Notes under the pieces: generated by a model
Told to the model about the DNA's origin: nothing
Databases searched by the model: none
Seen by the model: only the letters and a program-made list of their open reading frames with translations
DNA from: an uncultured Planctomycetales bacterium
GTDB taxonomy: Bacteria > Omnitrophota > Gorgyraeia > Gygaellales > Profunditerraquicolaceae
Direction of reading: 5' to 3'
Assembly: GCA_964487475.1 (NCBI GenBank)
Contig: CAZAPM010000001.1
Coordinates: forward strand, 122,086-186,085
DNA: 64,000 nucleotides
Translations under genes and position numbers: made by a program
Shown here: positions 1 through 6,974 of the stretch, piece after piece
How positions within the stretch are numbered: position 1 is the first letter of the stretch
Layout: the number at the start of each line of letters is the position of its first letter

Positions 1-1
1 T

Positions 2-154
2 CGGCCTTCGGCGTGTGCTTCTTCCATGCCTGCCAAGATCACGGATGAAGTTAAGACGCAGAGGCTCATGCGGCTCGCCGCCCTCTTAAAGGCGGCAGGG
101 AGAGCGTTTTCCTTGCGAGACTATACGTTGCCCCATGTCCCAACTCATCGCTGA
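2..154 (+). CDS. 3' end of an ORF entering from the window edge (...KTQRLMRLAALLKAAGRAFSLRDYTLPHVPTHR*); alternatively a 42-aa peptide from ATG 26; overlaps the next gene by 20 nt
   Basis: Frame 2 is open from nt 2 to the TGA at 152-154. An ATG lies at 26. Tight overlap with the radical-SAM gene starting at 135 suggests co-translation. Not in the ORF track because it is short or partial. Confidence 0.3.
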   Translation, partial: RPSACASSMPAKITDEVKTQRLMRLAALLKAAGRAFSLRDYTLPHVPTHR

Positions 155-1178
155 ACTGTACCTGACCGAAGCATGTACCATGCGCTGCCGCTATTGTTAT
201 CTCCCCAAACGTCCGCGCAGGATGACCTGGGAAGTCGCACGTAAGGCGGTGGATCTCGTGGCTTCCAGGAAAGTGCCTTCTACCATCATCTGTTTTTTCG
301 GGGGTGAGCCTCTTCTGGAGTGGGAGCTTCTGGTCCGGGTCGTCGCATATGCGCGGCGACAGGGGATCAGGCGTTTCAACATCTGTACGAACGGACTGGC
401 GATCACACGTCGCAGGGCGGCGCAGATGGCAGCCATGAACCTGGTCCCGATGTTCAGTATCGACGGAGCGTTCCGGCAGCATGACCGGGAACGCCTGGGC
501 GTACGGGGAAGGGCTACGCATGCTCGGGTGGTCAGGCGCATAAAGGAAGCGGTCCCTTTTTTCAAGGGGATGCCTGTCCAGGTCCAGATCACGGTCACTC
601 CCGGTACCGTCGATACGCTGCGGGAGTCGGTGGGGTTCATCCGAGGTGCATTCCCCGGATGGGATATTAATCTGGTTCCTGCGGCTGCGCAAGGGGTGCG
701 TTATAGATGGGATGCATCAGCATGTACCACGCTGCGTGCGCAATGCCGGGGATTAGGCGCGGATATCGCCGCAGAGAGGCGCGCGGGAGTATCCGGTTCG
801 GTTTCATACATGTGTTGCGCGCCGCAGCGGGACCTGGCCCATTTTAAGGCAGGTCGCCGTGCTTCTTGTTTTTGCGCCCCGGCGACCAGGCATCTTTCGG
901 TCACGGTGGAGGGAGAGGTATACCCGTGTTTCTTTTTCGCGGGACTCAAGGACAAGGCGTTTCGGATCGGTGATGTGCATGAGGGGTTGTCTGCCGGGCC
1001 TTTTGTGCGTCGGGTAGGAGAGGCTTTTTCGCGAAGGCCGGGAGTGTTTACTTGTTGGGCCGGAAATGCGGTGGTGAGGGGTATGATGGAACACAGGGCC
1101 GGTATATATGAAACGTTCGACAGGGCCTGGGCGGTCGCCGCGGCTCAGGTCAGGCGCCAGGCAACGGAGGTGCGGTGA
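135..1178 (+). CDS. radical SAM enzyme with SPASM/twitch-like C-terminal domain (anSME / peptide-maturase-like)
   Basis: N-terminal CTMRCRYC (CxxxCxxC). FFGGEPLL SAM-binding motif. FSIDG...HD..R......G hallmark of the SPASM subfamily. Cys-rich C-terminal half (YMCC...SCFC...YPC...FTC) with a GDVHEGL motif resembling the SPASM G-N/D-I/V...E motif. Confidence 0.85.
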   Translation: MSQLIAELYLTEACTMRCRYCYLPKRPRRMTWEVARKAVDLVASRKVPSTIICFFGGEPLLEWELLVRVVAYARRQGIRRFNICTNGLAITRRRAAQMAAMNLVPMFSIDGAFRQHDRERLGVRGRATHARVVRRIKEAVPFFKGMPVQVQITVTPGTVDTLRESVGFIRGAFPGWDINLVPAAAQGVRYRWDASACTTLRAQCRGLGADIAAERRAGVSGSVSYMCCAPQRDLAHFKAGRRASCFCAPATRHLSVTVEGEVYPCFFFAGLKDKAFRIGDVHEGLSAGPFVRRVGEAFSRRPGVFTCWAGNAVVRGMMEHRAGIYETFDRAWAVAAAQVRRQATEVR

Positions 1179-2053
1179 GTTCAGCGGCCGGAGTCCCTCT
1201 CCGAATCCTTGAAGTGTTCGCGCGTTCCTGGGGGGGAGCGGGAGAGTATGAGTTCTCTCTTACTCAGGGGAGCGATCAGCTTGGGGTATCTCATCTGGCT
1301 TTTCCCCCCGTACCTGAGACGACTGTGAATTTCATGGAGTTCCATCGTAAACGTTCGGCGCAGATACGGGAGTGCTGCAGGCGTGTCGCGCCTCGCGTGG
1401 TTTCCGGCAGGGTATTGCGCAAGGTATGTACCTTTGCTTTGGCGTACCGGCTCCCTCTGCAGTTCGGTTGCGAGGTAGCGCCGGGAGGGGGAATGCAGGC
1501 AAAGCTGTATCTGAGCGCAGGGCCTCGGCGTATGCACCTTTTAAAGGCCGCACAGGGTATTTTGGACTCTTTCGGGTGTCCTCCGGAGGCAGCGAAAGAA
1601 TGCGTTCCTCCAGAGTGGCATATCGATGCGTTCGGGTTCGACCTTTCCGGCGTTCCGGGGGTGCGCATATATAGCGCGGTCAGGGCTACTTCCCGTGGTC
1701 TGTCCTCTCTCGGCAAGTATCTGCGTATGTGCAGGGGAGGATTTCTCTCTCCGCTTGCCCGGAGGTTCCTCTCGCATGCGTCGCAGGTGAAGCCGAAGGA
1801 TGTGCTCCTCTTGTTCCGCATTGATGCGAAAGGGATCAGTTCAGCGAAGGCTTGTTTCAGGTTCAGGAAGCCGCTTTCTTTCTCCCTGCTTAGGCGTTGC
1901 GGCCGTGTGCCTGGCGGCCGCGGATTCTCCTGGCTGAGCAGCCGCGCAGAGGAGCTGGAGAGGCAGGGGTTCGGCATTTCTTACTTCTGCGCGGAGCGCT
2001 CTTCTTGCGGGATCTATTTCCGTCATCTCACGGCGGTGAGGAGAAGTTCATGA
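1175..2053 (+). CDS. hypothetical protein (292 aa), translationally coupled between radical-SAM genes
   Basis: GTG start at 1175 overlaps the TGA of the upstream gene (GTGA). Its stop at 2051-2053 overlaps the ATG of the next gene (ATGA). Non-repetitive, protein-like composition. Competing ORFs in the interval are Arg/Pro-rich antisense-type junk. No recognisable domain. Confidence 0.5.
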   Translation: MSSAAGVPLRILEVFARSWGGAGEYEFSLTQGSDQLGVSHLAFPPVPETTVNFMEFHRKRSAQIRECCRRVAPRVVSGRVLRKVCTFALAYRLPLQFGCEVAPGGGMQAKLYLSAGPRRMHLLKAAQGILDSFGCPPEAAKECVPPEWHIDAFGFDLSGVPGVRIYSAVRATSRGLSSLGKYLRMCRGGFLSPLARRFLSHASQVKPKDVLLLFRIDAKGISSAKACFRFRKPLSFSLLRRCGRVPGGRGFSWLSSRAEELERQGFGISYFCAERSSCGIYFRHLTAVRRSS

Positions 2054-2955
2054 AAAGAAAATCCCTGCGCAAGCTCGATTACAAGATCGGGTTCGCGTGT
2101 AACAACTATTGTATCCATTGTGTACAGGGAGGCAAGCGGGAGTCGGTACGTGCGAGGACTTTGTTTCAGATCATGCGGGATATACGCGAAAGTGCGGCGA
2201 CCTGTACGGAAGTGGTGTTTACGGGAGGGGAGCCGACCATCCATCCCCATTTCCTTGAGGCGGTGCGGGAAGCTGCGAGGGCCGGCTATTCCGTGATCCA
2301 GGTGCAGTCCAATGGAAGGATGTTCGTCTATCCCGAGTTCTGCCGCGCAGCCATGGACGCAGGAGTCAATGATTTCTGTGTTGCCGTCCTTGGTGACAGC
2401 GCACGTCTCCATGAAGCGCATACTCTTGCGAAAGGGAGTTTTTCCCAGGTAGTGCAGGGTATACGGAACCTGCGTTCTTTGGGATGCCGCGTTTCGGTCA
2501 ACTCCGTGATCACCAAGCTTAACTATCGGCGTCTGCCCCGTCTGGCGATGTTCCTTTCCGGCTTAGGGGTAGCGCAGGTGCAGTTCGCGTTTCCTCATCC
2601 CGGGGGGAGGGCGTGGATAAATTTTCCGCGCGTGGTGCCGCGGATGAGCACGGTCGTGCCTTTCGTGTGCGAGGGGCTGCGGAAGGGAGCGCAGCGTGGG
2701 GTGCGCATGATGACCGAGGCTATCCCTCCGTGCATGCTTCCTGGATTCGAGGGGTTTATCGCGGAACGGATCATGCCCGATGCGACCGTGTTCGATGGCG
2801 ACCTGGTGATCGAGCGTTATGAGGAGTATCGCAGGGATAAGGGGAAGCGAAAAGGGCCCCGGTGCGGCCAGTGCCGGTATTTTCCCTCTTGCGAGGGGAC
2901 ATGGAAAGAGTATCCCGAGAAGTTCGGCTGGAAGGAGTTCAGGCCTGTCGTATGA
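2050..2955 (+). CDS. radical SAM enzyme, tandem paralog 1 (twitch-type auxiliary Cys cluster)
   Basis: CNNYCIHC CxxxCxxC motif. FTGGEPT. VQSNGRMF. GDSARLHEAHT..KGSF. C-terminal CGQCRYFPSCEG (Cx2Cx5C). ATG 2050 is preceded by the Shine-Dalgarno GGTGAGGAG. The track's longer start at 1897 is rejected. Confidence 0.85.
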   Translation: MKRKSLRKLDYKIGFACNNYCIHCVQGGKRESVRARTLFQIMRDIRESAATCTEVVFTGGEPTIHPHFLEAVREAARAGYSVIQVQSNGRMFVYPEFCRAAMDAGVNDFCVAVLGDSARLHEAHTLAKGSFSQVVQGIRNLRSLGCRVSVNSVITKLNYRRLPRLAMFLSGLGVAQVQFAFPHPGGRAWINFPRVVPRMSTVVPFVCEGLRKGAQRGVRMMTEAIPPCMLPGFEGFIAERIMPDATVFDGDLVIERYEEYRRDKGKRKGPRCGQCRYFPSCEGTWKEYPEKFGWKEFRPVV

Positions 2956-3875
2956 TCAGGAAAACGGTGATCATCATGGGGTACCGGTGTAATTGTCATT
3001 GCGTGTTCTGCTGCAATGCGCATAAGCGTTCCCTGCCCGACCGGTCCACCGATGATATTCTGGTCGAGATGGCGCGCGCGCGCAGACGCGGGTGTACGTA
3101 CCTCGAACTTATCGGAGGGGAGGGGACCATACGGAAGGATATTTTGCAGCTGGTTTCACAGGCCCGCCGCATCGGCTTCGAAGAGGTGGTCATGGCGTCC
3201 AACGGGAGGATGTTCGCGTATCCGCATTTCGCCCGAGATCTGGTGGATGCCGGGGTGACACATCTGGTATTCTCCATTCACGGGCATACCGCGGCATTAC
3301 ACGATTCTCTTACCAGGTCCCCGGGTAGTTTTGGGCAGCTGATCGAGGGGATCGGTCATATCCGTCGTTTCAGGGACCGCTGCCCCATCGGGTCTAACAC
3401 GACTATCGTGAAGGGGAATTACCGCGCGCTCGAGGAGATCGGCAAGTTCATCTATTCGCTGGGTATCCGCAACGCCGAGTTCATCTTTGTCGATCCGACA
3501 CAGGGTGCAGCGTTCTCTTCCTTTGCCCGTATCGTGCCGAGACTTTCTGTTATGGCCCCGTACGCACGTAAATGCCTGGAATTCGGGAAGGCCAGGAGGA
3601 TCCCCCACTGGCATCTGCGATACGTGCCGTTATGCCTCTTTCCCGGTCACGAAGACCGAATCAGCGAGCTTGCGGAACGGAAGACGTTCATCACGGAGCA
3701 TGTAGCCGGGGATTTCGTCAATTTTGACGTGCAGTCATCCCGTGCTTCCGTTGGGCGTATCAAGCCTCCGAAGTGCCGTAAGTGTGCGAAATTCGCCAGA
3801 TGCGAGGGGCTTTGGAAGGAATATTACCGACATTACGGGGATAAAGAACTGCTGCCGGATATCACCCATGCCTAA
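2952..3875 (+). CDS. radical SAM enzyme, tandem paralog 2
   Basis: CNCHCVFC motif. LIGGEGT. MASNGRMF. SIHGHTAALHDSLTRSPGSF. CRKCAKFARCEG. ATG 2952 overlaps the stop of paralog 1 (ATGA). Collinear motif-by-motif similarity to paralogs 1 and 3. Confidence 0.85.
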   Translation: MIRKTVIIMGYRCNCHCVFCCNAHKRSLPDRSTDDILVEMARARRRGCTYLELIGGEGTIRKDILQLVSQARRIGFEEVVMASNGRMFAYPHFARDLVDAGVTHLVFSIHGHTAALHDSLTRSPGSFGQLIEGIGHIRRFRDRCPIGSNTTIVKGNYRALEEIGKFIYSLGIRNAEFIFVDPTQGAAFSSFARIVPRLSVMAPYARKCLEFGKARRIPHWHLRYVPLCLFPGHEDRISELAERKTFITEHVAGDFVNFDVQSSRASVGRIKPPKCRKCAKFARCEGLWKEYYRHYGDKELLPDITHA

Positions 3876-4800
3876 TATTTCAGTATATCACAAATGCGAT
3901 AACCGTTGTGTGATGTGCTCCAATCCCAGGGATTTCATACAAAGCCCGGCGAAGGATTTCTCCCTGGCGCGACTTTCACGGCGTTTAAAGAATTTTTCCC
4001 TGGGGAGAAATGTCTTTCTGGAGAATTTCAGGGACGCGTTCATTCTTTCCGGCGGTGAGCCTACCATGTCTCCGGATCTTTTTCCCGTTATCCGGAGGGT
4101 CGCCACGTTGTTCCCGCAGGCTCAGATCACCTGCTTGACCAATGGCAGGGCGTTTTCCCGTGAAGCGTACGCCAGGGAGTTCATGCGGAGGTTCCCGCTG
4201 GTGAATCTGGTGATCCCCGTGCACGGGCATACGGCTTCGCTGCACGACCGTATCACCAGGGTCAAGGGGAGCTTTACGCAGACCCTGCGGGGTCTGCAGG
4301 TGATCAGTGCCCTTATGCGTCCTACCCAGCTGCTTGAGCTCCGGGTGGTCCTGCACGGCCTCAATTACCGCTGGATGAAGGAAATTGCCCGGTTTCTGCG
4401 CGCGCAGGTCCCCAGTGCGGGACGGGTGGTTTTCATATTCGTCGAAATAGAGGGGGAGGCGGCTAAGAACTGGCGGAGGATCGGCGTGACGTATACGCAG
4501 GTCCGTCCTTTCTTGCGGGAAGCGGCTTCAGAATTGCTGCGGCTTCCTGATCCCCGGCTGTACCATTTTCCGCTCTGTCTGGTGCCGCGGGCGCTTTTCC
4601 CCCTTGTTTTTCGCACCCTGCCCGAAGCAGAGATCATGTTCCCCGTTCAGTGCCGCCTCTGTGCGCTTAAAAGCTGTTGCCTGGGGGTACACCGTGGGTA
4701 CGCCGGCGGTGTAGGGGTGGATGAGTTCCGCCCTTTCAGGCGGAAGATACGCTTCGTACGTACGGGCAATTGGTATCATCCGATCGGCAGGGTTTTGTGA
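3868..4800 (+). CDS. radical SAM enzyme, tandem paralog 3
   Basis: CDNRCVMC motif. LSGGEPT. CLTNGRAF. PVHGHTASLHDRITRVKGSF. C-terminal CRLCALKSCC. ATG 3868 overlaps the end of paralog 2 by 8 nt. Confidence 0.8.
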   Translation: MPNISVYHKCDNRCVMCSNPRDFIQSPAKDFSLARLSRRLKNFSLGRNVFLENFRDAFILSGGEPTMSPDLFPVIRRVATLFPQAQITCLTNGRAFSREAYAREFMRRFPLVNLVIPVHGHTASLHDRITRVKGSFTQTLRGLQVISALMRPTQLLELRVVLHGLNYRWMKEIARFLRAQVPSAGRVVFIFVEIEGEAAKNWRRIGVTYTQVRPFLREAASELLRLPDPRLYHFPLCLVPRALFPLVFRTLPEAEIMFPVQCRLCALKSCCLGVHRGYAGGVGVDEFRPFRRKIRFVRTGNWYHPIGRVL

Positions 4801-5738
4801 TGGTTCCTTTCACGCTTGCCGACGCCCTCCTTTTTCCGGGCGTACTGGTCCTGGGAGCGGTAACCAGCATTGAGGATTTCAGGATTGGCAAGGTCCGTAA
4901 TGTCTGGATCCTGCGCGGCATGCTGTACGCGGTACTTGTGTACTGCGCGGTCTTTCTGCTGCAGTTCGTTATGGGAGGGGACCAGGGAGTGCGCGCACTG
5001 GTGCAGCCATTTTTTTACCGTTTCGACAGGTTCCTGGTTACGGTAGGAACGAGTATCTGTGTGGCATATGCGCTTTGGAGGTATCGAGTGTGGGGCGCAG
5101 GGGATGCGAAACTTTTCATCTGTTATTCGATGCTTTTCCCCCTTTCAAGTTACCGGCTTGTGTATTTCGATCATTATTTCGCATCGTACCTTATCCTGCT
5201 GGCGATCTTTATTCCCGCCACCGTCTTTCTCCTGGGGCGTTCGCTGTTTTTTTTCCTCCGATCCGGGGAATACTGGCGCACGCGTGCGGAAACGAGGAAG
5301 GTGATGCCTCGCCGTCCCCTCAAGGAGAAATGCGTGGGAGGAGCGCGGATATTCCTGGGTTTTTTCCTGATGTTCATCCTTGCCCAGTTGCTTATCGCGG
5401 GTATTCCCTTTTTCTCCCGGGGAGGGGCGGGGAGTCTCGGCGCGATCGTGCTTTCGTGGCTCGTGTTTAGGCCGCTATCCCTTTTTTTTAAGCGTTACCA
5501 TCTTGCGGTGATTTCCGGTTTCCTTATCCTTGCCGTGGGAGCAGGGTTTTTCCCGGAGCTGCGTGCCTCGCTTATTTCAAAAGAGCTGTGGTTCTCTTTT
5601 CTGCGTGCGCTGGCGGCGCTTGTGGGTTTCCCGGTATTTCGCATGGTCATCGATGAATATGTGGATTATTCCGGCCGCAAGGAATCCCGTTTTGCGGTGT
5701 GGATGTTCCTGGGAACAATTATTTCACGGTTCCTGTGA
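4800..5738 (+). CDS. polytopic membrane protein, prepilin-peptidase (A24, TadV/CpaA)-like aspartyl protease
   Basis: Highly hydrophobic with multiple predicted TM helices. First catalytic Asp context SIEDFRIGKVRN resembles CpaA/TadV D....R.IPN. Second motif WGAGDAKLF matches the A24 GGGDxKL motif. ATG 4800 overlaps the TGA of the preceding radical-SAM gene (TGATG). The track's TTG start at 4770 is also possible. Confidence 0.6.
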   Translation: MVPFTLADALLFPGVLVLGAVTSIEDFRIGKVRNVWILRGMLYAVLVYCAVFLLQFVMGGDQGVRALVQPFFYRFDRFLVTVGTSICVAYALWRYRVWGAGDAKLFICYSMLFPLSSYRLVYFDHYFASYLILLAIFIPATVFLLGRSLFFFLRSGEYWRTRAETRKVMPRRPLKEKCVGGARIFLGFFLMFILAQLLIAGIPFFSRGGAGSLGAIVLSWLVFRPLSLFFKRYHLAVISGFLILAVGAGFFPELRASLISKELWFSFLRALAALVGFPVFRMVIDEYVDYSGRKESRFAVWMFLGTIISRFL

Positions 5739-5787
5739 GATTCCCTTTCCCGTTGCGTCTTAAGTAGAGGAAAGGGGGGAATTTCGT

Positions 5788-5816
5788 TTGACAGCCCAAG
5801 GGAAGAGGGCTATAAT
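5788..5816 (+). promoter_or_regulatory. sigma70-type promoter upstream of recA (TTGACA-17 nt-TATAAT)
   Basis: Consensus -35 TTGACA at 5788-5793, 17-nt spacer, consensus -10 TATAAT at 5811-5816. RBS GGAGG at 5863-5867 precedes ATG 5874. Confidence 0.6.
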
Positions 5817-5873
5817 TAACTTCTTAAATTACTTTAATAAAGTCGGAAAAAGCTTAAGATTTGGAGGTTTACG

Positions 5874-6974
5874 ATGAGTGCTGAAAAGAAACCAGCAGGA
5901 AAGTCCGCTGCTGCCGCCCCCGTTGCGGCGGTAGAGGAGCAGAAGCAGTCCTCCGAGCGTAACGAGCGAAGCAAGGCGCTTGAGCTCGCGCTTTCCCAGA
6001 TAGAGAAACAGTTCGGCAAGGGGTCGATCATGAAGCTTGGCGGCGACGTCAAGGTTCACGTCGATGCCATCCCGACCGGCGCCCTGACCCTGGATGTGGC
6101 CTTGGGCGTGGGAGGCCTTCCCCGCGGCCGTATCATCGAGGTCTTCGGGCCGGAAGCCAGCGGTAAGACCACCCTGACCCTGACCCTGATCCGCGAGATC
6201 CAGAAAAAGGGGGGTGTCGCGGCATTTATCGACGCTGAGCACGCGTTCGATTCCACTTATGCGAAGGTCATCGGGGTCAATCTCGACGACCTGCTCATCT
6301 CCCAGCCGGATACGGGAGAGCAGGCGCTGGAGATCGCCGAGACTCTGGTGCGCTCCAATGCGGTGGACGTGATCGTGATCGATTCCGTCGCGGCGTTGAC
6401 ACCCCGCGCCGAGATCGAGGGCGAGATGGGGGATGCGCACGTCGGGCTTCAGGCGAGGCTGATGTCGCAGGCCCTGCGCAAGCTCACCGCGGCGATCAGC
6501 AAATCCCGGACCTGCATGGTGTTCATCAATCAGCTGCGCGAGAAGATCGGCGTCATGTTCGGCTCTCCCGAGACCACTCCCGGAGGCCGGGCGCTGAAGT
6601 TCTATTCGTCGGTAAGGCTCGATCTGCGCCGTATCGCGACCCTGAAATCCGGGGAGCAGGTGATCGGCAACCGCGTCAAATGCAAAGTGGTCAAGAACAA
6701 GGTCGCACCTCCCTTCCGCGAGGCGGAGTTCGAGACGCTGCATAACGAAGGGATCTCCAAGGCCGGTTCGATCGTCGACGCCGGGGTGGGGGTGGGGGTC
6801 CTGGACAAGCCCGGGGTGTGGATCTCCTTCAACGGAGAAAAGATCGGACAGGGCAGGGACGCGGCGGTCAAGACGGTCAAAGAGAACATCAAACTTGCGG
6901 ACGCGATCGAGAAAGAGATCCGCAAGCGGATATTCGCAGGTGCGGAACCTGCCAAACCCGCTGCCAAAGCGTAA
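5874..6974 (+). CDS. recA: recombinase RecA
   Basis: [12 protein letters not shown] Walker [45 protein letters not shown]. Unmistakable RecA. Confidence 0.97.

Follow-up and report, generated by a model that had tools for sequence, protein, structure and literature searches.

A divergent A24-class membrane protease encoded with radical SAM enzymes of variant His-Xaa-Ser systems as a candidate precursor peptidase

Among the closest described systems is the canonical His-Xaa-Ser (HXS) system, HxsD-HxsB-HxsC-HxsA, which was found in 2026 to protect broadly against phages (PMC13128918). In experiments, its HxsA component undergoes N-terminal processing and leaves the cell by a route yet to be identified (PMC13128918; Nat Commun 2026), and dedicated accessory translocators have been proposed for HxsA (PMC13128918). 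In the survey of these systems, 99.7% were found in Pseudomonadota, and they consisted of four genes (PMC13128918). None of the four codes for an A24-like protein, and the canonical HxsA carries a plain signal peptide and a peptidoglycan-binding domain.

Proteases of the A24 class are associated with other substrates. The archaeal preflagellin (class III signal) peptidase FlaK/PibD (A24B; PDB 3S0X), with six transmembrane helices and a soluble insert, acts on archaellins and pilins. Flp prepilin peptidases cut the leader FLKDESG after its Gly residue, and known A24 substrates are cut directly at the junction between the leader and the hydrophobic segment. The GxGD proteases, to which A24 enzymes belong, also include signal-peptide peptidases. 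None of the papers searched links a prepilin peptidase with Hxs systems or with radical SAM (rSAM) RiPPs.

The window, i.e., the whole 64-kb stretch of DNA analyzed here, harbors a six-gene module whose last gene codes for an A24-like polytopic membrane protein (Table 1). Neighboring genes overlap throughout the module, at 1175-1178, 2050-2053, 2952-2955, 3868-3875 and 4800, and the first base of the peptidase ATG (4800-4802) is also the last base of the TGA that ends the rSAM gene before it (4798-4800, 'tgatg'). This is the translational coupling to rSAM genes that a preliminary description of the locus had claimed. The JGI gene calls on identical metagenome contigs gave the same boundaries for the peptidase open reading frame.

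Table 1. Coordinates of the genes and motifs of the six-gene module and of its flanks in the window.
Feature	Position	Strand	Remarks
MiaB/MtaB-like methylthiotransferase-type rSAM gene, 3' end	1..154	+	20-nt overlap with the next gene
Radical SAM/SPASM enzyme, PapB-like, 347 aa	135..1178	+	motif CTMRCRYC
292-aa protein	1175..2053	+	no family hit
Radical SAM enzyme, HxsC4-like, 301 aa	2050..2955	+	motif CNNYCIHC
Radical SAM enzyme, HxsC4-like, 307 aa	2952..3875	+	motif CNCHCVFC
Radical SAM enzyme, HxsC-like, 310 aa	3868..4800	+	motif CDNRCVMC; stop codon runs into the peptidase ATG
Divergent A24/GxGD aspartyl intramembrane protease (predicted), 312 aa	4800..5738	+	final gene of the module
First catalytic box SIEDFRIGKVRN, residues 23-34	4866..4901	+	D26 codon gat 4875-4877; N34
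Second catalytic box WGAGDAKLF (GxGD motif), residues 98-106	5091..5117	+	D102 codon gat 5103-5105
C-terminal helix motif FAVWMFLG	5691..5714	+	F298 in 74/76 and G305 in 71/76 relatives
Perfect TTGACA-17-TATAAT promoter for recA (5874-6974)	5788..5816	+	12/12 consensus matches; outside the system, boundary marker

The four rSAM enzymes of the module relate to Hxs enzymes to different extents. The first, the only SPASM enzyme of the window, matched Pfam Radical_SAM at 63 bits and SPASM at 19.8 bits, slightly under the cut-off of 21.5; its best NCBIfam match was PapB (138 bits, cut-off 340), ahead of HxsB (61 bits, cut-off 370), and it scored 27 bits against the HxsB protein of a related locus (L007). 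The 292-aa protein encoded next probably has an ABBA (PT-barrel) prenyltransferase-like fold. The three remaining rSAM enzymes are HxsC-like, as in canonical systems, but their best NCBIfam matches all fall short of the cut-offs: 152.7 bits for HxsC4 (NF038332, cut-off 500; 88 bits for HxsC) for the product of 2050-2955, 143 bits for HxsC4 (cut-off 500) for that of 2952-3875, and 157.2 bits for HxsC (TIGR03977; profile positions 31-289 of 292, cut-off 267.9) for that of 3868-4800. Clear orthologues of the three occur in HxsA-containing clusters. Those of the first score 270-330 bits in related loci; those of the second (340-408 bits) are encoded one gene 5' of the A24-like gene in many loci, in the order C_b-C_c-A24, and those of the third immediately 5' of it in most loci. 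Related loci also contain bona fide HxsB, HxsC and HxsD as well as HxS-repeat precursors, while the module of the window is devoid of HxsA, HxsB and HxsD. The PADLOC defence models returned generic viperin-like similarity for the rSAM enzymes and left the peptidase unmatched.

The 5' boundary of the module is probably the MiaB/MtaB-like gene. An exact 30-mer search of metagenome contigs for sequence upstream of the window found none. A JGI contig (L099), which encodes a protein at least 90% identical to B_spasm, extends the sequence by 97 nt, with a translation of the upstream reading frame tail identical to that of the window. The resulting 82-aa tail (GFPGETEKDF...) aligns with residues 271-328 of UPF0004+Radical_SAM genes of 402-405 aa, which are located directly 5' of Hxs clusters in loci L091 (E 6e-7) and L007 (2e-6). 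The same order, with the MtaB-like gene preceding the Hxs cluster, is found in L100. We had considered that the operon might merely be cut off by the edge of the window and dropped this idea, the upstream gene being MtaB-like in the 97-nt extension.

Judged by its sequence, the last gene encodes a genuine, though divergent, aspartyl protease of the membrane that belongs to the A24 (GxGD, prepilin-peptidase) class. PF01478 was the sole Pfam family that it matched, at 17.8 bits (E 0.0047) for a gathering threshold of 26.5 bits, leaving no better family assignment. The same family was matched by 22 of 24 members (best E 3.3e-8), including a Clostridial one above the threshold (L058, 29.4 bits) and another, P0232, at 25.5 bits. 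Both Asp residues lie within the conserved boxes, as had been proposed. D26 aligns with position 14 of the Pfam profile, as does D94, the first catalytic-box Asp of Escherichia coli GspO, and its box is found just after TM1, as in A24 enzymes. The G-x-G-D-x-K-L box is at the start of a transmembrane helix that begins at residue 100 in the model, and the helical fold is of the FlaK type. Loops rich in K/R are present on either side of both Asp residues, arguing that the active site faces the cytoplasm. Proteolytic activity is what these features predict.

The architecture is best explained by a FlaK/TadV-like core devoid of a methyltransferase domain, with an insertion of ~140 residues forming 4-5 helices before the last core helix. 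The FAVWMFLG motif is probably that last helix of the A24 fold, displaced by the insertion. With about ten helices and 11% identity to FlaK, the protein thus differs from the archaeal enzyme by its membrane insertion and by its context, rSAM peptide maturation. It has the same Pfam domain as the bifunctional type IV prepilin peptidase PilD/GspO (A24A) and weakly resembles it at the C terminus (FAxWMFLG versus FGPWLALG), but it does not have the N-terminal Cys-rich N-methyltransferase domain; the core starts at about residue 5, and there is no second Pfam domain. Similarity to PilD/GspO was not significant in pairwise or profile-to-sequence comparisons, and the genomic context is neither that of type II secretion nor that of a type IV pilus. 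In hhalign comparisons with the single GspO sequence, the full-length family profile (A1) paired only the C-terminal helix (FGPWLALG), with low probability; with either that profile or one of the N-terminal domain (A3), the only motifs paired were correct ones, the C-terminal helix and the first Asp box, at non-significant levels that provide no more than a hint. Searches of PDB sequences with the two profiles yielded a chance match to the leptin receptor or nothing, and a Foldseek search of the PDB gave nothing significant.

The family is large and its catalytic boxes are strictly conserved. Fifty full-length homologues were collected (E down to 1e-47), and a profile search of cluster representatives (50% identity) retrieved 1394 at E<=1e-3, 993 of them at E<=1e-10. 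The nearest relatives are 34-37% identical and come from metagenome-assembled genomes labelled Omnitrophota, Planctomycetia or Deltaproteobacteria. Among 78 distinct relatives from many phyla, D26 is conserved in 77/77 and N34 in 76/77 sequences; in the second box, W98 is found in 77/78, and G101, D102, K104, L105, F106 and P114 are present in all 78. The homologue and conservation data show that the matches to the catalytic boxes are not due to chance. No second GxGDxK[LMIF] motif was found in the called open reading frames of at least 40 aa of the window. A tblastn search with the N-terminal domain against 72,556 plasmids gave no match, and no relatives of the peptidase were found in viral contigs.

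These data also bear on a non-proteolytic role for an A24-derived fold, be it as a membrane scaffold, as an immunity-type protein or as a conduit for export; the protein would tether the rSAM maturation complex or carry the modified peptide through the membrane. The 4-5 extra transmembrane helices have no known counterpart, and the protein invariably sits in the membrane and at the end of clusters that otherwise encode cytoplasmic enzymes. One relative is a fusion with a GT-C (PMT_2) membrane glycosyltransferase, and the accessory translocators proposed for HxsA would fit such a function. However, both Asp residues and the entire GxGDxKL box are invariant in 78 sequences whose N-terminal domains are otherwise only ~27% identical column-wise, and catalytic residues are usually lost when enzymes evolve into scaffolds. 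Conservation is lowest in the inserted helices, where no column is invariant from about 140 to 298. We thus regard a non-proteolytic role as rather improbable.

The genomic context of the family was analyzed in 77 loci retrieved independently with sequence patterns of the peptidase only. Hxs-type rSAM genes are present in the flanks of 72 of them, and in 65/77 a gene of the Hxs cluster (for an rSAM enzyme, HxsD, HxsA or a TPR partner protein) adjoins the peptidase gene on the same strand. HxsB was found in 35 of the loci and HxsD in 26; 32 encode an HxsA-like precursor, and the other 45 show none within +/-10 kb. This synteny spans Omnitrophota, CPR/Patescibacteria, Clostridia, Myxococcota and other groups. 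Twelve loci of Clostridia/Halanaerobiales have a common cassette, HxsA3-HxsD-A24-HxsC-HxsB, whose HxsA3 (106.9 bits), HxsC (329) and HxsB (520) all exceed the NCBIfam cut-offs. Conversely, a search starting from a precursor, P0058, showed that its cluster ends with the peptidase gene (L091, E 8.6e-94). In JAUXSB010000003.1, the HxsA4 gene and the peptidase gene bracket ~21 kb with 16 rSAM genes, or 17 if the HxsB gene just 5' of the precursor gene is counted. The family is thus almost always a component of variant (type 3/4) His-Xaa-Ser rSAM systems rather than of a pilus. The rSAM context, which had been called unusual, is therefore real, but far from being an isolated curiosity it is what the family normally shows.

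Alternatively, the protein could be a standard prepilin peptidase of the type IV or Flp kind, working for a pilus or secretion system whose genes are located elsewhere and neighboring rSAM genes by chance; this explanation is highly improbable and already largely refuted. Some database entries do name relatives 'prepilin peptidase' or 'CpaA', and in two loci, L091 and L100, a pilin-like N_methyl gene lies ~9-17 kb upstream, accompanied in L091 by a T2SS-F gene. The overlap of the peptidase start with an rSAM stop codon and the conserved Hxs synteny in many phyla argue against chance. The window has no pilus gene, and no Flp or pilin motif was detected in its 64 kb by a six-frame scan or in 98 other loci. 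In addition, no NCBIfam prepilin-peptidase model was matched, the four family members tested matched no NCBIfam model, and a signature and an additional domain of its own set the family apart. The protein had been described as TadV/CpaA-like. It resembles TadV/CpaA/FppA in being a stand-alone A24 domain with D-x7-N and GxGDxKL boxes, and its assignment to A24 stands. In contrast, orthology with TadV/CpaA was ruled out by its size, which is, as proposed, about twice theirs (312 versus ~140-170 aa), by the ~140-aa insertion that accounts for the extra helices, by the absence of Flp genes from the window and by the rSAM neighbors. The protein belongs to a separate, larger subfamily outside tad/cpa loci, in which the residue preceding the Asn of the Asp box is R, K or Y rather than P.

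A candidate substrate is found in the neighboring genes of related loci. In HxsA3/HxsA4 precursors, which pass the NCBIfam HxsA3 (NF038309) and HxsA4 (NF038313) cut-offs in L058 and L026, the Sec-like signal sequence is preceded by an N-terminal extension whose last residues are F-L-x-S/E-E-E-G. This ending resembles the Flp leader FLKDESG; in annotated Flp pilins, the sequence is MTKLFTRFLKDESG↓ATAIEYGLI. The putative substrates differ from Flp pilins in that no G↓xxxxEY motif follows the Gly, and the Flp Pfam model gave no hit with the precursors. Leader statistics were computed on 114 leader-bearing precursors chosen with a regular expression anchored on E-E-G, so that the 100% value for E-E-G is by construction; at the Gly position, where the expression permitted G, A or S, all 114 have Gly. 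In these sequences F(-6) is conserved at 99%, L(-5) at 94%, I(+2) at 95% and G/A(+11) at 96%. In an alignment independent of the expression (A2), E27 and E28 are invariant, and G29 is conserved at no less than 90%. Past +11 come ~10 hydrophobic residues, an Ala-rich stretch at +26 to +28 and the first His at +29/+30.

The leader and the peptidase co-vary across system types. In the canonical hxsD-B-C-A cassette of Aeromonas salmonicida there is no A24-like gene, and HxsA starts directly with a Sec signal peptide. The leader extension and the peptidase are thus the two features that go together, whereas both types of systems have HxsB, HxsC and HxsD. At the level of the family, this bears out the guess that the peptidase might define the leader chemistry of its substrate, as neighboring precursors do carry the FLxSEEG leader; in the window itself, the substrate gene is absent.

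From these sequence comparisons, we consider it probable, at roughly 60%, that the family is the dedicated protease of variant Hxs systems and trims HxsA3/HxsA4-type precursors of their N-terminal extension on the cytoplasmic side of the membrane. The cytoplasmic rSAM enzymes would first modify the His-Xaa-Ser core, and the peptidase would then cut at the membrane, preferably after the Gly of EEG. The cut would expose a Sec-type signal peptide with a basic n-region, ~12-15 hydrophobic residues and an Ala-rich (AAA) c-region. As the latter resembles the AxA site of signal peptidase I, this enzyme might finally free the modified peptide outside the cell. An alternative site for the peptidase would be a second conserved Gly, at +11, where the hydrophobic stretch begins. 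The FLxSEEG motif could instead be what HxsD or the rSAM enzymes recognize.

It is also conceivable, though unlikely, that the protein is an active protease with another role, cutting at the +11 Gly at the membrane junction in a class-III-like manner, which would leave a short hydrophobic N terminus, or clearing the leader or signal remnant after signal peptidase I has freed the peptide. The conservation of G/A at +11, preceded by a Lys at +9 and directly followed by the hydrophobic run, reproduces the geometry of known A24 substrates, while the Gly of EEG lies ~10 residues N-terminal of the hydrophobic segment. The AxA-like AAA stretch ahead of the first His argues for a separate cut by signal peptidase I, and the GxGD intramembrane aspartyl chemistry common to presenilin and signal-peptide peptidase (eukaryotic and archaeal enzymes) makes a clearing role on signal-peptide-like segments possible. 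Nevertheless, ~10 hydrophobic residues are too few for a pilin-like anchor, some of the precursors (L065, L073 and P0138) have A, T or S at +11, and it is the Gly of EEG, not that at +11, that is invariant in the selected set and resembles Flp leaders.

The main caveat to the dedicated-protease reading comes from the window itself. No HxsA-like precursor, HxsD (the LLNDYxLRE protein) or HxsB (an rSAM/SPASM enzyme of ~470 aa) is encoded within its 64 kb on either strand in any frame. A scan for HxsA revealed no open reading frame with at least 3 HxS per 40 aa, tblastn with 11 precursors gave no match in the window, and a six-frame search of it for FLxxEEG as well as phmmer searches with HxsA, HxsD and HxsB queries were negative. 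These genes are probably not just past the edge of the window, because the upstream gene resembles the housekeeping mtaB-like gene that flanks complete clusters elsewhere. The precursor gene would thus be located elsewhere in the source genome.

We tentatively propose a broader reading, with odds slightly short of even, in which the family represents a missing fifth Hxs component ('HxsE', our own nickname and not an established name) that cuts a Flp-type leader fused 5' of a Sec signal peptide as an export checkpoint. Removal of the leader would license export of the fully modified HxS effector, which, by analogy with canonical HXS, could be an envelope-located anti-phage or metal-binding peptide. 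In this broader proposal, the six-gene module, with its SPASM rSAM enzyme, ABBA prenyltransferase-like protein, three HxsC-like rSAM enzymes and peptidase, might be a tailoring and processing module acting in trans on a distant precursor.

The family provides a concrete candidate protease for the processing of His-Xaa-Ser precursors. If the proposed role is correct, rSAM-modified RiPP-like peptides would join pilins, archaellins and some archaeal solute-binding proteins among the substrates of A24 peptidases, and this would be the first A24/prepilin-type peptidase dedicated to an rSAM-modified peptide, not a pilin or archaellin. The precursors show a composite leader, in which a Flp-type leader is followed by a Sec signal peptide. 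The family comprises about 1000-1400 sequence clusters now labelled 'hypothetical protein' or, misleadingly, 'prepilin peptidase', and it reliably marks very large multi-rSAM clusters in Omnitrophota, CPR/Patescibacteria, Clostridia and other groups. The variants differ from canonical HXS in their short precursors, which carry an extra Flp-like leader, in the peptidase and in an rSAM complement that reaches about 17 genes; they indicate that the Hxs system is much more widespread and modular than the survey of four-gene Pseudomonadota systems implied.

A Pfam search with the 312-aa protein returned Peptidase_A24 (PF01478) as its sole match, at 17.8 bits (E = 0.0047; profile positions 8 to 100 of 104), which is under the curated cut-off of 26.5 bits, and searches of NCBIfam and PADLOC gave no match. 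By sequence similarity, the protein is a member of a large, coherent family: 50 full-length homologues were found at 30 to 37% identity, and in an exhaustive profile search 1,394 sequences, each representing one 50%-identity cluster, reached E ≤ 1e-3, of which 993 reached E ≤ 1e-10 and 258 reached E ≤ 1e-30. PF01478 was matched by 22 of 24 aligned members (best E, 3.3e-8), and a clostridial member exceeded its curated threshold with 29.4 bits. Across 78 distinct members, taken from 77 genomic loci, conservation amounts to 77/77 for D26, 76/77 for N34 and 78/78 for each of G101, D102, K104, L105, F106 and P114, with an overall column identity in the N-terminal domain of only 27%. D26 falls on profile position 14, that of the first-box Asp, D94, of Escherichia coli GspO, and the second box reads GAGDAKLF versus GYGDFKLL in GspO. 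As K/R-rich loops flank them (GKVR following TM1, RYRVWG ahead of the GxGD helix), both Asp residues would lie at the cytoplasmic face, which is the known topology of the A24 family. No methyltransferase domain was found in the protein.

The preliminary description had called this protein a TadV/CpaA-like A24 prepilin-peptidase homologue. The profile match, the invariant Asp boxes and the equivalence with D94 of GspO bear out the A24 homology, and the protein is almost certainly an A24-clan protease homologue. Clan motifs and fold stand, but the narrower label does not: the protein is set apart from the TadV/CpaA as well as the PilD/GspO subfamilies by its size, domain content, locus and putative substrates. 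The invariance of the catalytic box argues for an enzyme over a scaffold. The additional helices, previously placed at the C terminus, do exist, four or five of them at residues ~160 to 295, weakly conserved and accompanied by a very basic cytoplasmic loop. The final helix, FAxWMFLG, is conserved and similar to the GspO helix FGPWLALG, and the extra segment is thus read as inserted ahead of the last core helix. These poorly conserved helices may serve in docking.

The gene closes a module of six genes on the same strand, whose neighbors overlap by 1 to 8 nt. The overlap reported earlier between the peptidase start and the stop of the preceding radical-SAM (rSAM) gene was confirmed, the ATG (4800-4802) and the TGA (4798-4800) having an A in common, and JGI, calling genes on metagenome contigs of identical sequence, placed both ends of the peptidase gene at these positions.

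Features of the module and its downstream border (window positions)
Feature	Position	Strand	Remark
rSAM/SPASM enzyme, 347 aa	135-1178	+	
292-aa protein of no named family	1175-2053	+	
rSAM	2050-2955	+	
rSAM	2952-3875	+	
rSAM	3868-4800	+	
A24-like protein, 312 aa	4800-5738	+	intact ORF, last module gene
sigma-70 consensus promoter, TTGACA-17-TATAAT	5788-5816	+	perfect, 12/12 matches; 58 nt 5′ of recA start
recA	5874-6974		downstream of module

Because the perfect promoter precedes recA, the module ends with the peptidase gene. Beyond it lie two tRNAs, and the ORFs translated between 5.9 and 12.6 kb are recA, a recX-like gene, alaS and his genes; from these and the ORF sizes further on, housekeeping genes appear to make up the remainder of the window. 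A related contig adds 97 nt 5′ of the window start, where the upstream ORF is a MiaB/MtaB-like rSAM gene, as it is directly 5′ of complete His-Xaa-Ser (Hxs) clusters in loci L007, L091 and L100; the module therefore probably starts at its SPASM gene. Joined to L099:3-251, window positions 1-154 (+) encode a MiaB/MtaB-like methylthiotransferase rSAM that shares 20 nt with the first gene of the module and stops ~50 aa short of its 402- to 440-aa counterparts in those three loci, so that it appears to be without its C-terminal part. The rsmE-mtaB-like neighborhood, shared with the same three clusters, suggests a conserved insertion site with a reduced module in the window. The module region (window 1-6000) has a negative AT skew (-0.18, -0.09 and -0.25 in 2-kb steps) in a window that is mostly positive, with a similar GC content inside and outside (0.55 to 0.60); this skew may stem from the amino-acid make-up of a Phe/Leu-rich membrane protein or from a foreign origin of the module.

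The NCBIfam models nearest to the three adjacent rSAMs were HxsC (157 bits) and HxsC4 (153 and 143 bits), all under equivalog cut-offs. Loci were drawn from 185,579 species-representative genomes with peptidase-only patterns (W[GA][AG]GDAKLF and FAxWMF[LS]G), and their ORFs were then classified. Hxs-type rSAM genes lay within the flanks at 72 of the 77 distinct loci, and at 65 the same-strand direct neighbor was an Hxs-cluster gene (rSAM, HxsD, HxsA or TPR partner protein); HxsB was present at 35, HxsD at 26 and an HxS-repeat precursor at 32. Twelve Clostridia/Halanaerobiales MAG loci have in common a compact cassette, HxsA3-HxsD-A24-HxsC-HxsB, in which HxsA3 (106.9 bits), HxsC (329) and HxsB (520) score above the NCBIfam cut-offs and HxsD at its cut-off (49.3 versus 50). 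A second recurrent arrangement, in MAGs with the labels Omnitrophota, Planctomycetia or CPR/Patescibacteria, has the peptidase as its last gene, behind 3 to 16 HxsC-like rSAMs, often with orthologues of the three window rSAMs (~300, ~400 and 200 to 300 bits) directly 5′ of it. On JAUXSB010000003.1, ~21 kb separate an NCBI-named HxsA4 from the peptidase within a single co-directional run that has 16 rSAM genes, 17 with the HxsB just 5′ of the precursor. Conversely, a search begun from the precursor P0058 led to a cluster ending in the peptidase (L091, 18473-19387; E = 8.6e-94); three other precursor-anchored loci break off short of the end of their cluster. No relatives were found in the viral contigs searched. 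The peptidase is very probably a dedicated component of Hxs-type rSAM systems.

Several further features of these clusters were observed. The JAUXSB010000003.1 cluster (L100 and L004, ~99.3-57.2 kb; a Candidatus Omnitrophota MAG) reads HxsD, 69-aa ORF, HxsB, 246-aa protein, HxsA4, 16 further rSAMs (one double-domain, one B12-binding), DUF483-like 355-aa protein, TPR protein and peptidase, which puts ~17 rSAM genes alongside a single precursor of ~98 aa. A ~320- to 355-aa DUF483-borderline protein (24.6 bits; cut-off, 25) and a ~160-aa TPR protein form a conserved pair directly 5′ of the peptidase in Omnitrophota-type clusters (L004:8190-9742, L091:17029-18480, L012, L014 and L021), and neither gene is in the window. 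Between HxsB and the precursor, type-4-like clusters conserve a Cys-rich ~225- to 245-aa protein whose N terminus is a signal or anchor sequence (L007:4698-5369, L006:352-1086, L091:9257-9976 and others). In the 817-aa family member P0201, an N-terminal PMT_2 domain (GT-C, protein O-mannosyltransferase-like; 27.8 bits, cut-off 26.1) is fused to an A24-like part (residues 554-751), and L006:12941-14608 is a stand-alone PMT_2 gene two genes 3′ of the peptidase. This could mean that the exported Ser-rich peptide is glycosylated, or the fusion could be an artefact of gene calling.

The precursors adjoining the peptidase have a distinctive common N terminus, the profile of which retrieved 216 proteins; all 19 inspected contain an HxS core, and one is NCBI-named HxsA4. 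We aligned 114 sequences on E-E-G, with its Gly as position 0; the motif was fixed by the anchoring expression and is independently invariant or at least 90% conserved in an alignment of precursor N termini. A basic N terminus is followed by F(-6) (99%), L(-5) (94%), S/E(-3) and E-E-G, then by K/N(+1), I(+2) (95%), basic residues at +4/+5 and +9, G/A(+11) (96%), ~ten hydrophobic residues, P/D/E, an Ala-rich stretch at +26 to +28 and the first His at +29/+30. With basic, hydrophobic and Ala-rich stretches in that order, the segment after E-E-G appears to be built as a normal Sec signal peptide is, with n-, h- and c-regions, the AAA stretch resembling an AxA cleavage site. The preceding segment, FLxSEEG, is similar to the leader of Flp prepilins, which in annotated Flp pilins reads MTKLFTRFLKDESG/ATAIEYGLI; TadV/CpaA enzymes cleave after the Gly of that leader. 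An aromatic C-terminal residue is very common in the precursors (L006-L093, P0058-P0177), with the ending GGWC in 26/114 and GQW and GSY/SSY frequent. Several loci carry tandem precursor genes (two in L023, three in L073), and the clostridial HxsA3 core AHRSHSSHRSHSSH has approximately the same repeat as canonical Aeromonas HxsA.

No HxsA, HxsD or HxsB homologue was found anywhere in the 64-kb window, and the module does not qualify as a complete Hxs system; it is a precursor-less set of a SPASM rSAM, the 292-aa protein, three HxsC-like rSAMs and the peptidase. It looks functional, since none of its four CxxxCxxC motifs and neither Asp box is disrupted and two of its proteins recur across samples, the peptidase identically in three further ones and the SPASM rSAM identically in L009 and as variants at least 90% identical in two more. 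Multiple or split systems do occur: contig CAYRDK010000002.1 carries two different peptidase copies ~25 kb apart (L015 and L018), and in L022 and L028 an HxsD-HxsB-HxsA block lies 4 to 9 kb from the peptidase. Each copy on CAYRDK010000002.1 ends its own rSAM array. By analogy with such split systems, a precursor encoded in trans is plausible but unproven for the window.

Canonical HXS of Aeromonas salmonicida (hxsD-B-C-A) is without an A24-like gene, and its HxsA opens directly with a signal peptide (MKKLMSTLQRWGVLGLGVLSG...). Canonical and variant types share HxsB, HxsC and HxsD. Only types 3/4 combine the N-terminal extension with the peptidase, which is most simply explained if the extension is what the peptidase acts on. 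We put at about 0.6 the probability that it is the leader peptidase of HxsA3/4-type precursors, with a putative activity like that of TadV/FlaK-type enzymes. We infer the following order: rSAM enzymes, partnered by HxsD as they are in the canonical system, would modify the precursor in the cytoplasm; its signal-like segment would engage the membrane; the A24-like protease, working at the cytoplasmic face, would cut off the Flp-like extension; and after export, signal peptidase I would release the peptide at the AxA-like site. A cut specifically after the E-E-G Gly is preferred but tentative, the alternative being the junction Gly at +11.

Canonical HXS was described in 2026 as a four-gene anti-phage system without a peptidase, the N-terminal processing and export of HxsA being unexplained (PMC13128918). 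In the literature searched, no paper ties prepilin peptidases to Hxs systems or to rSAM peptide systems, and no description of the peptidase partner was found. NCBIfam already curates HxsA3, HxsA4 and HxsC4, and their peptidase partner is without a model there. The family defines a large, unannotated, Hxs-dedicated A24 subfamily, for which a role as leader peptidase is plausible and testable.
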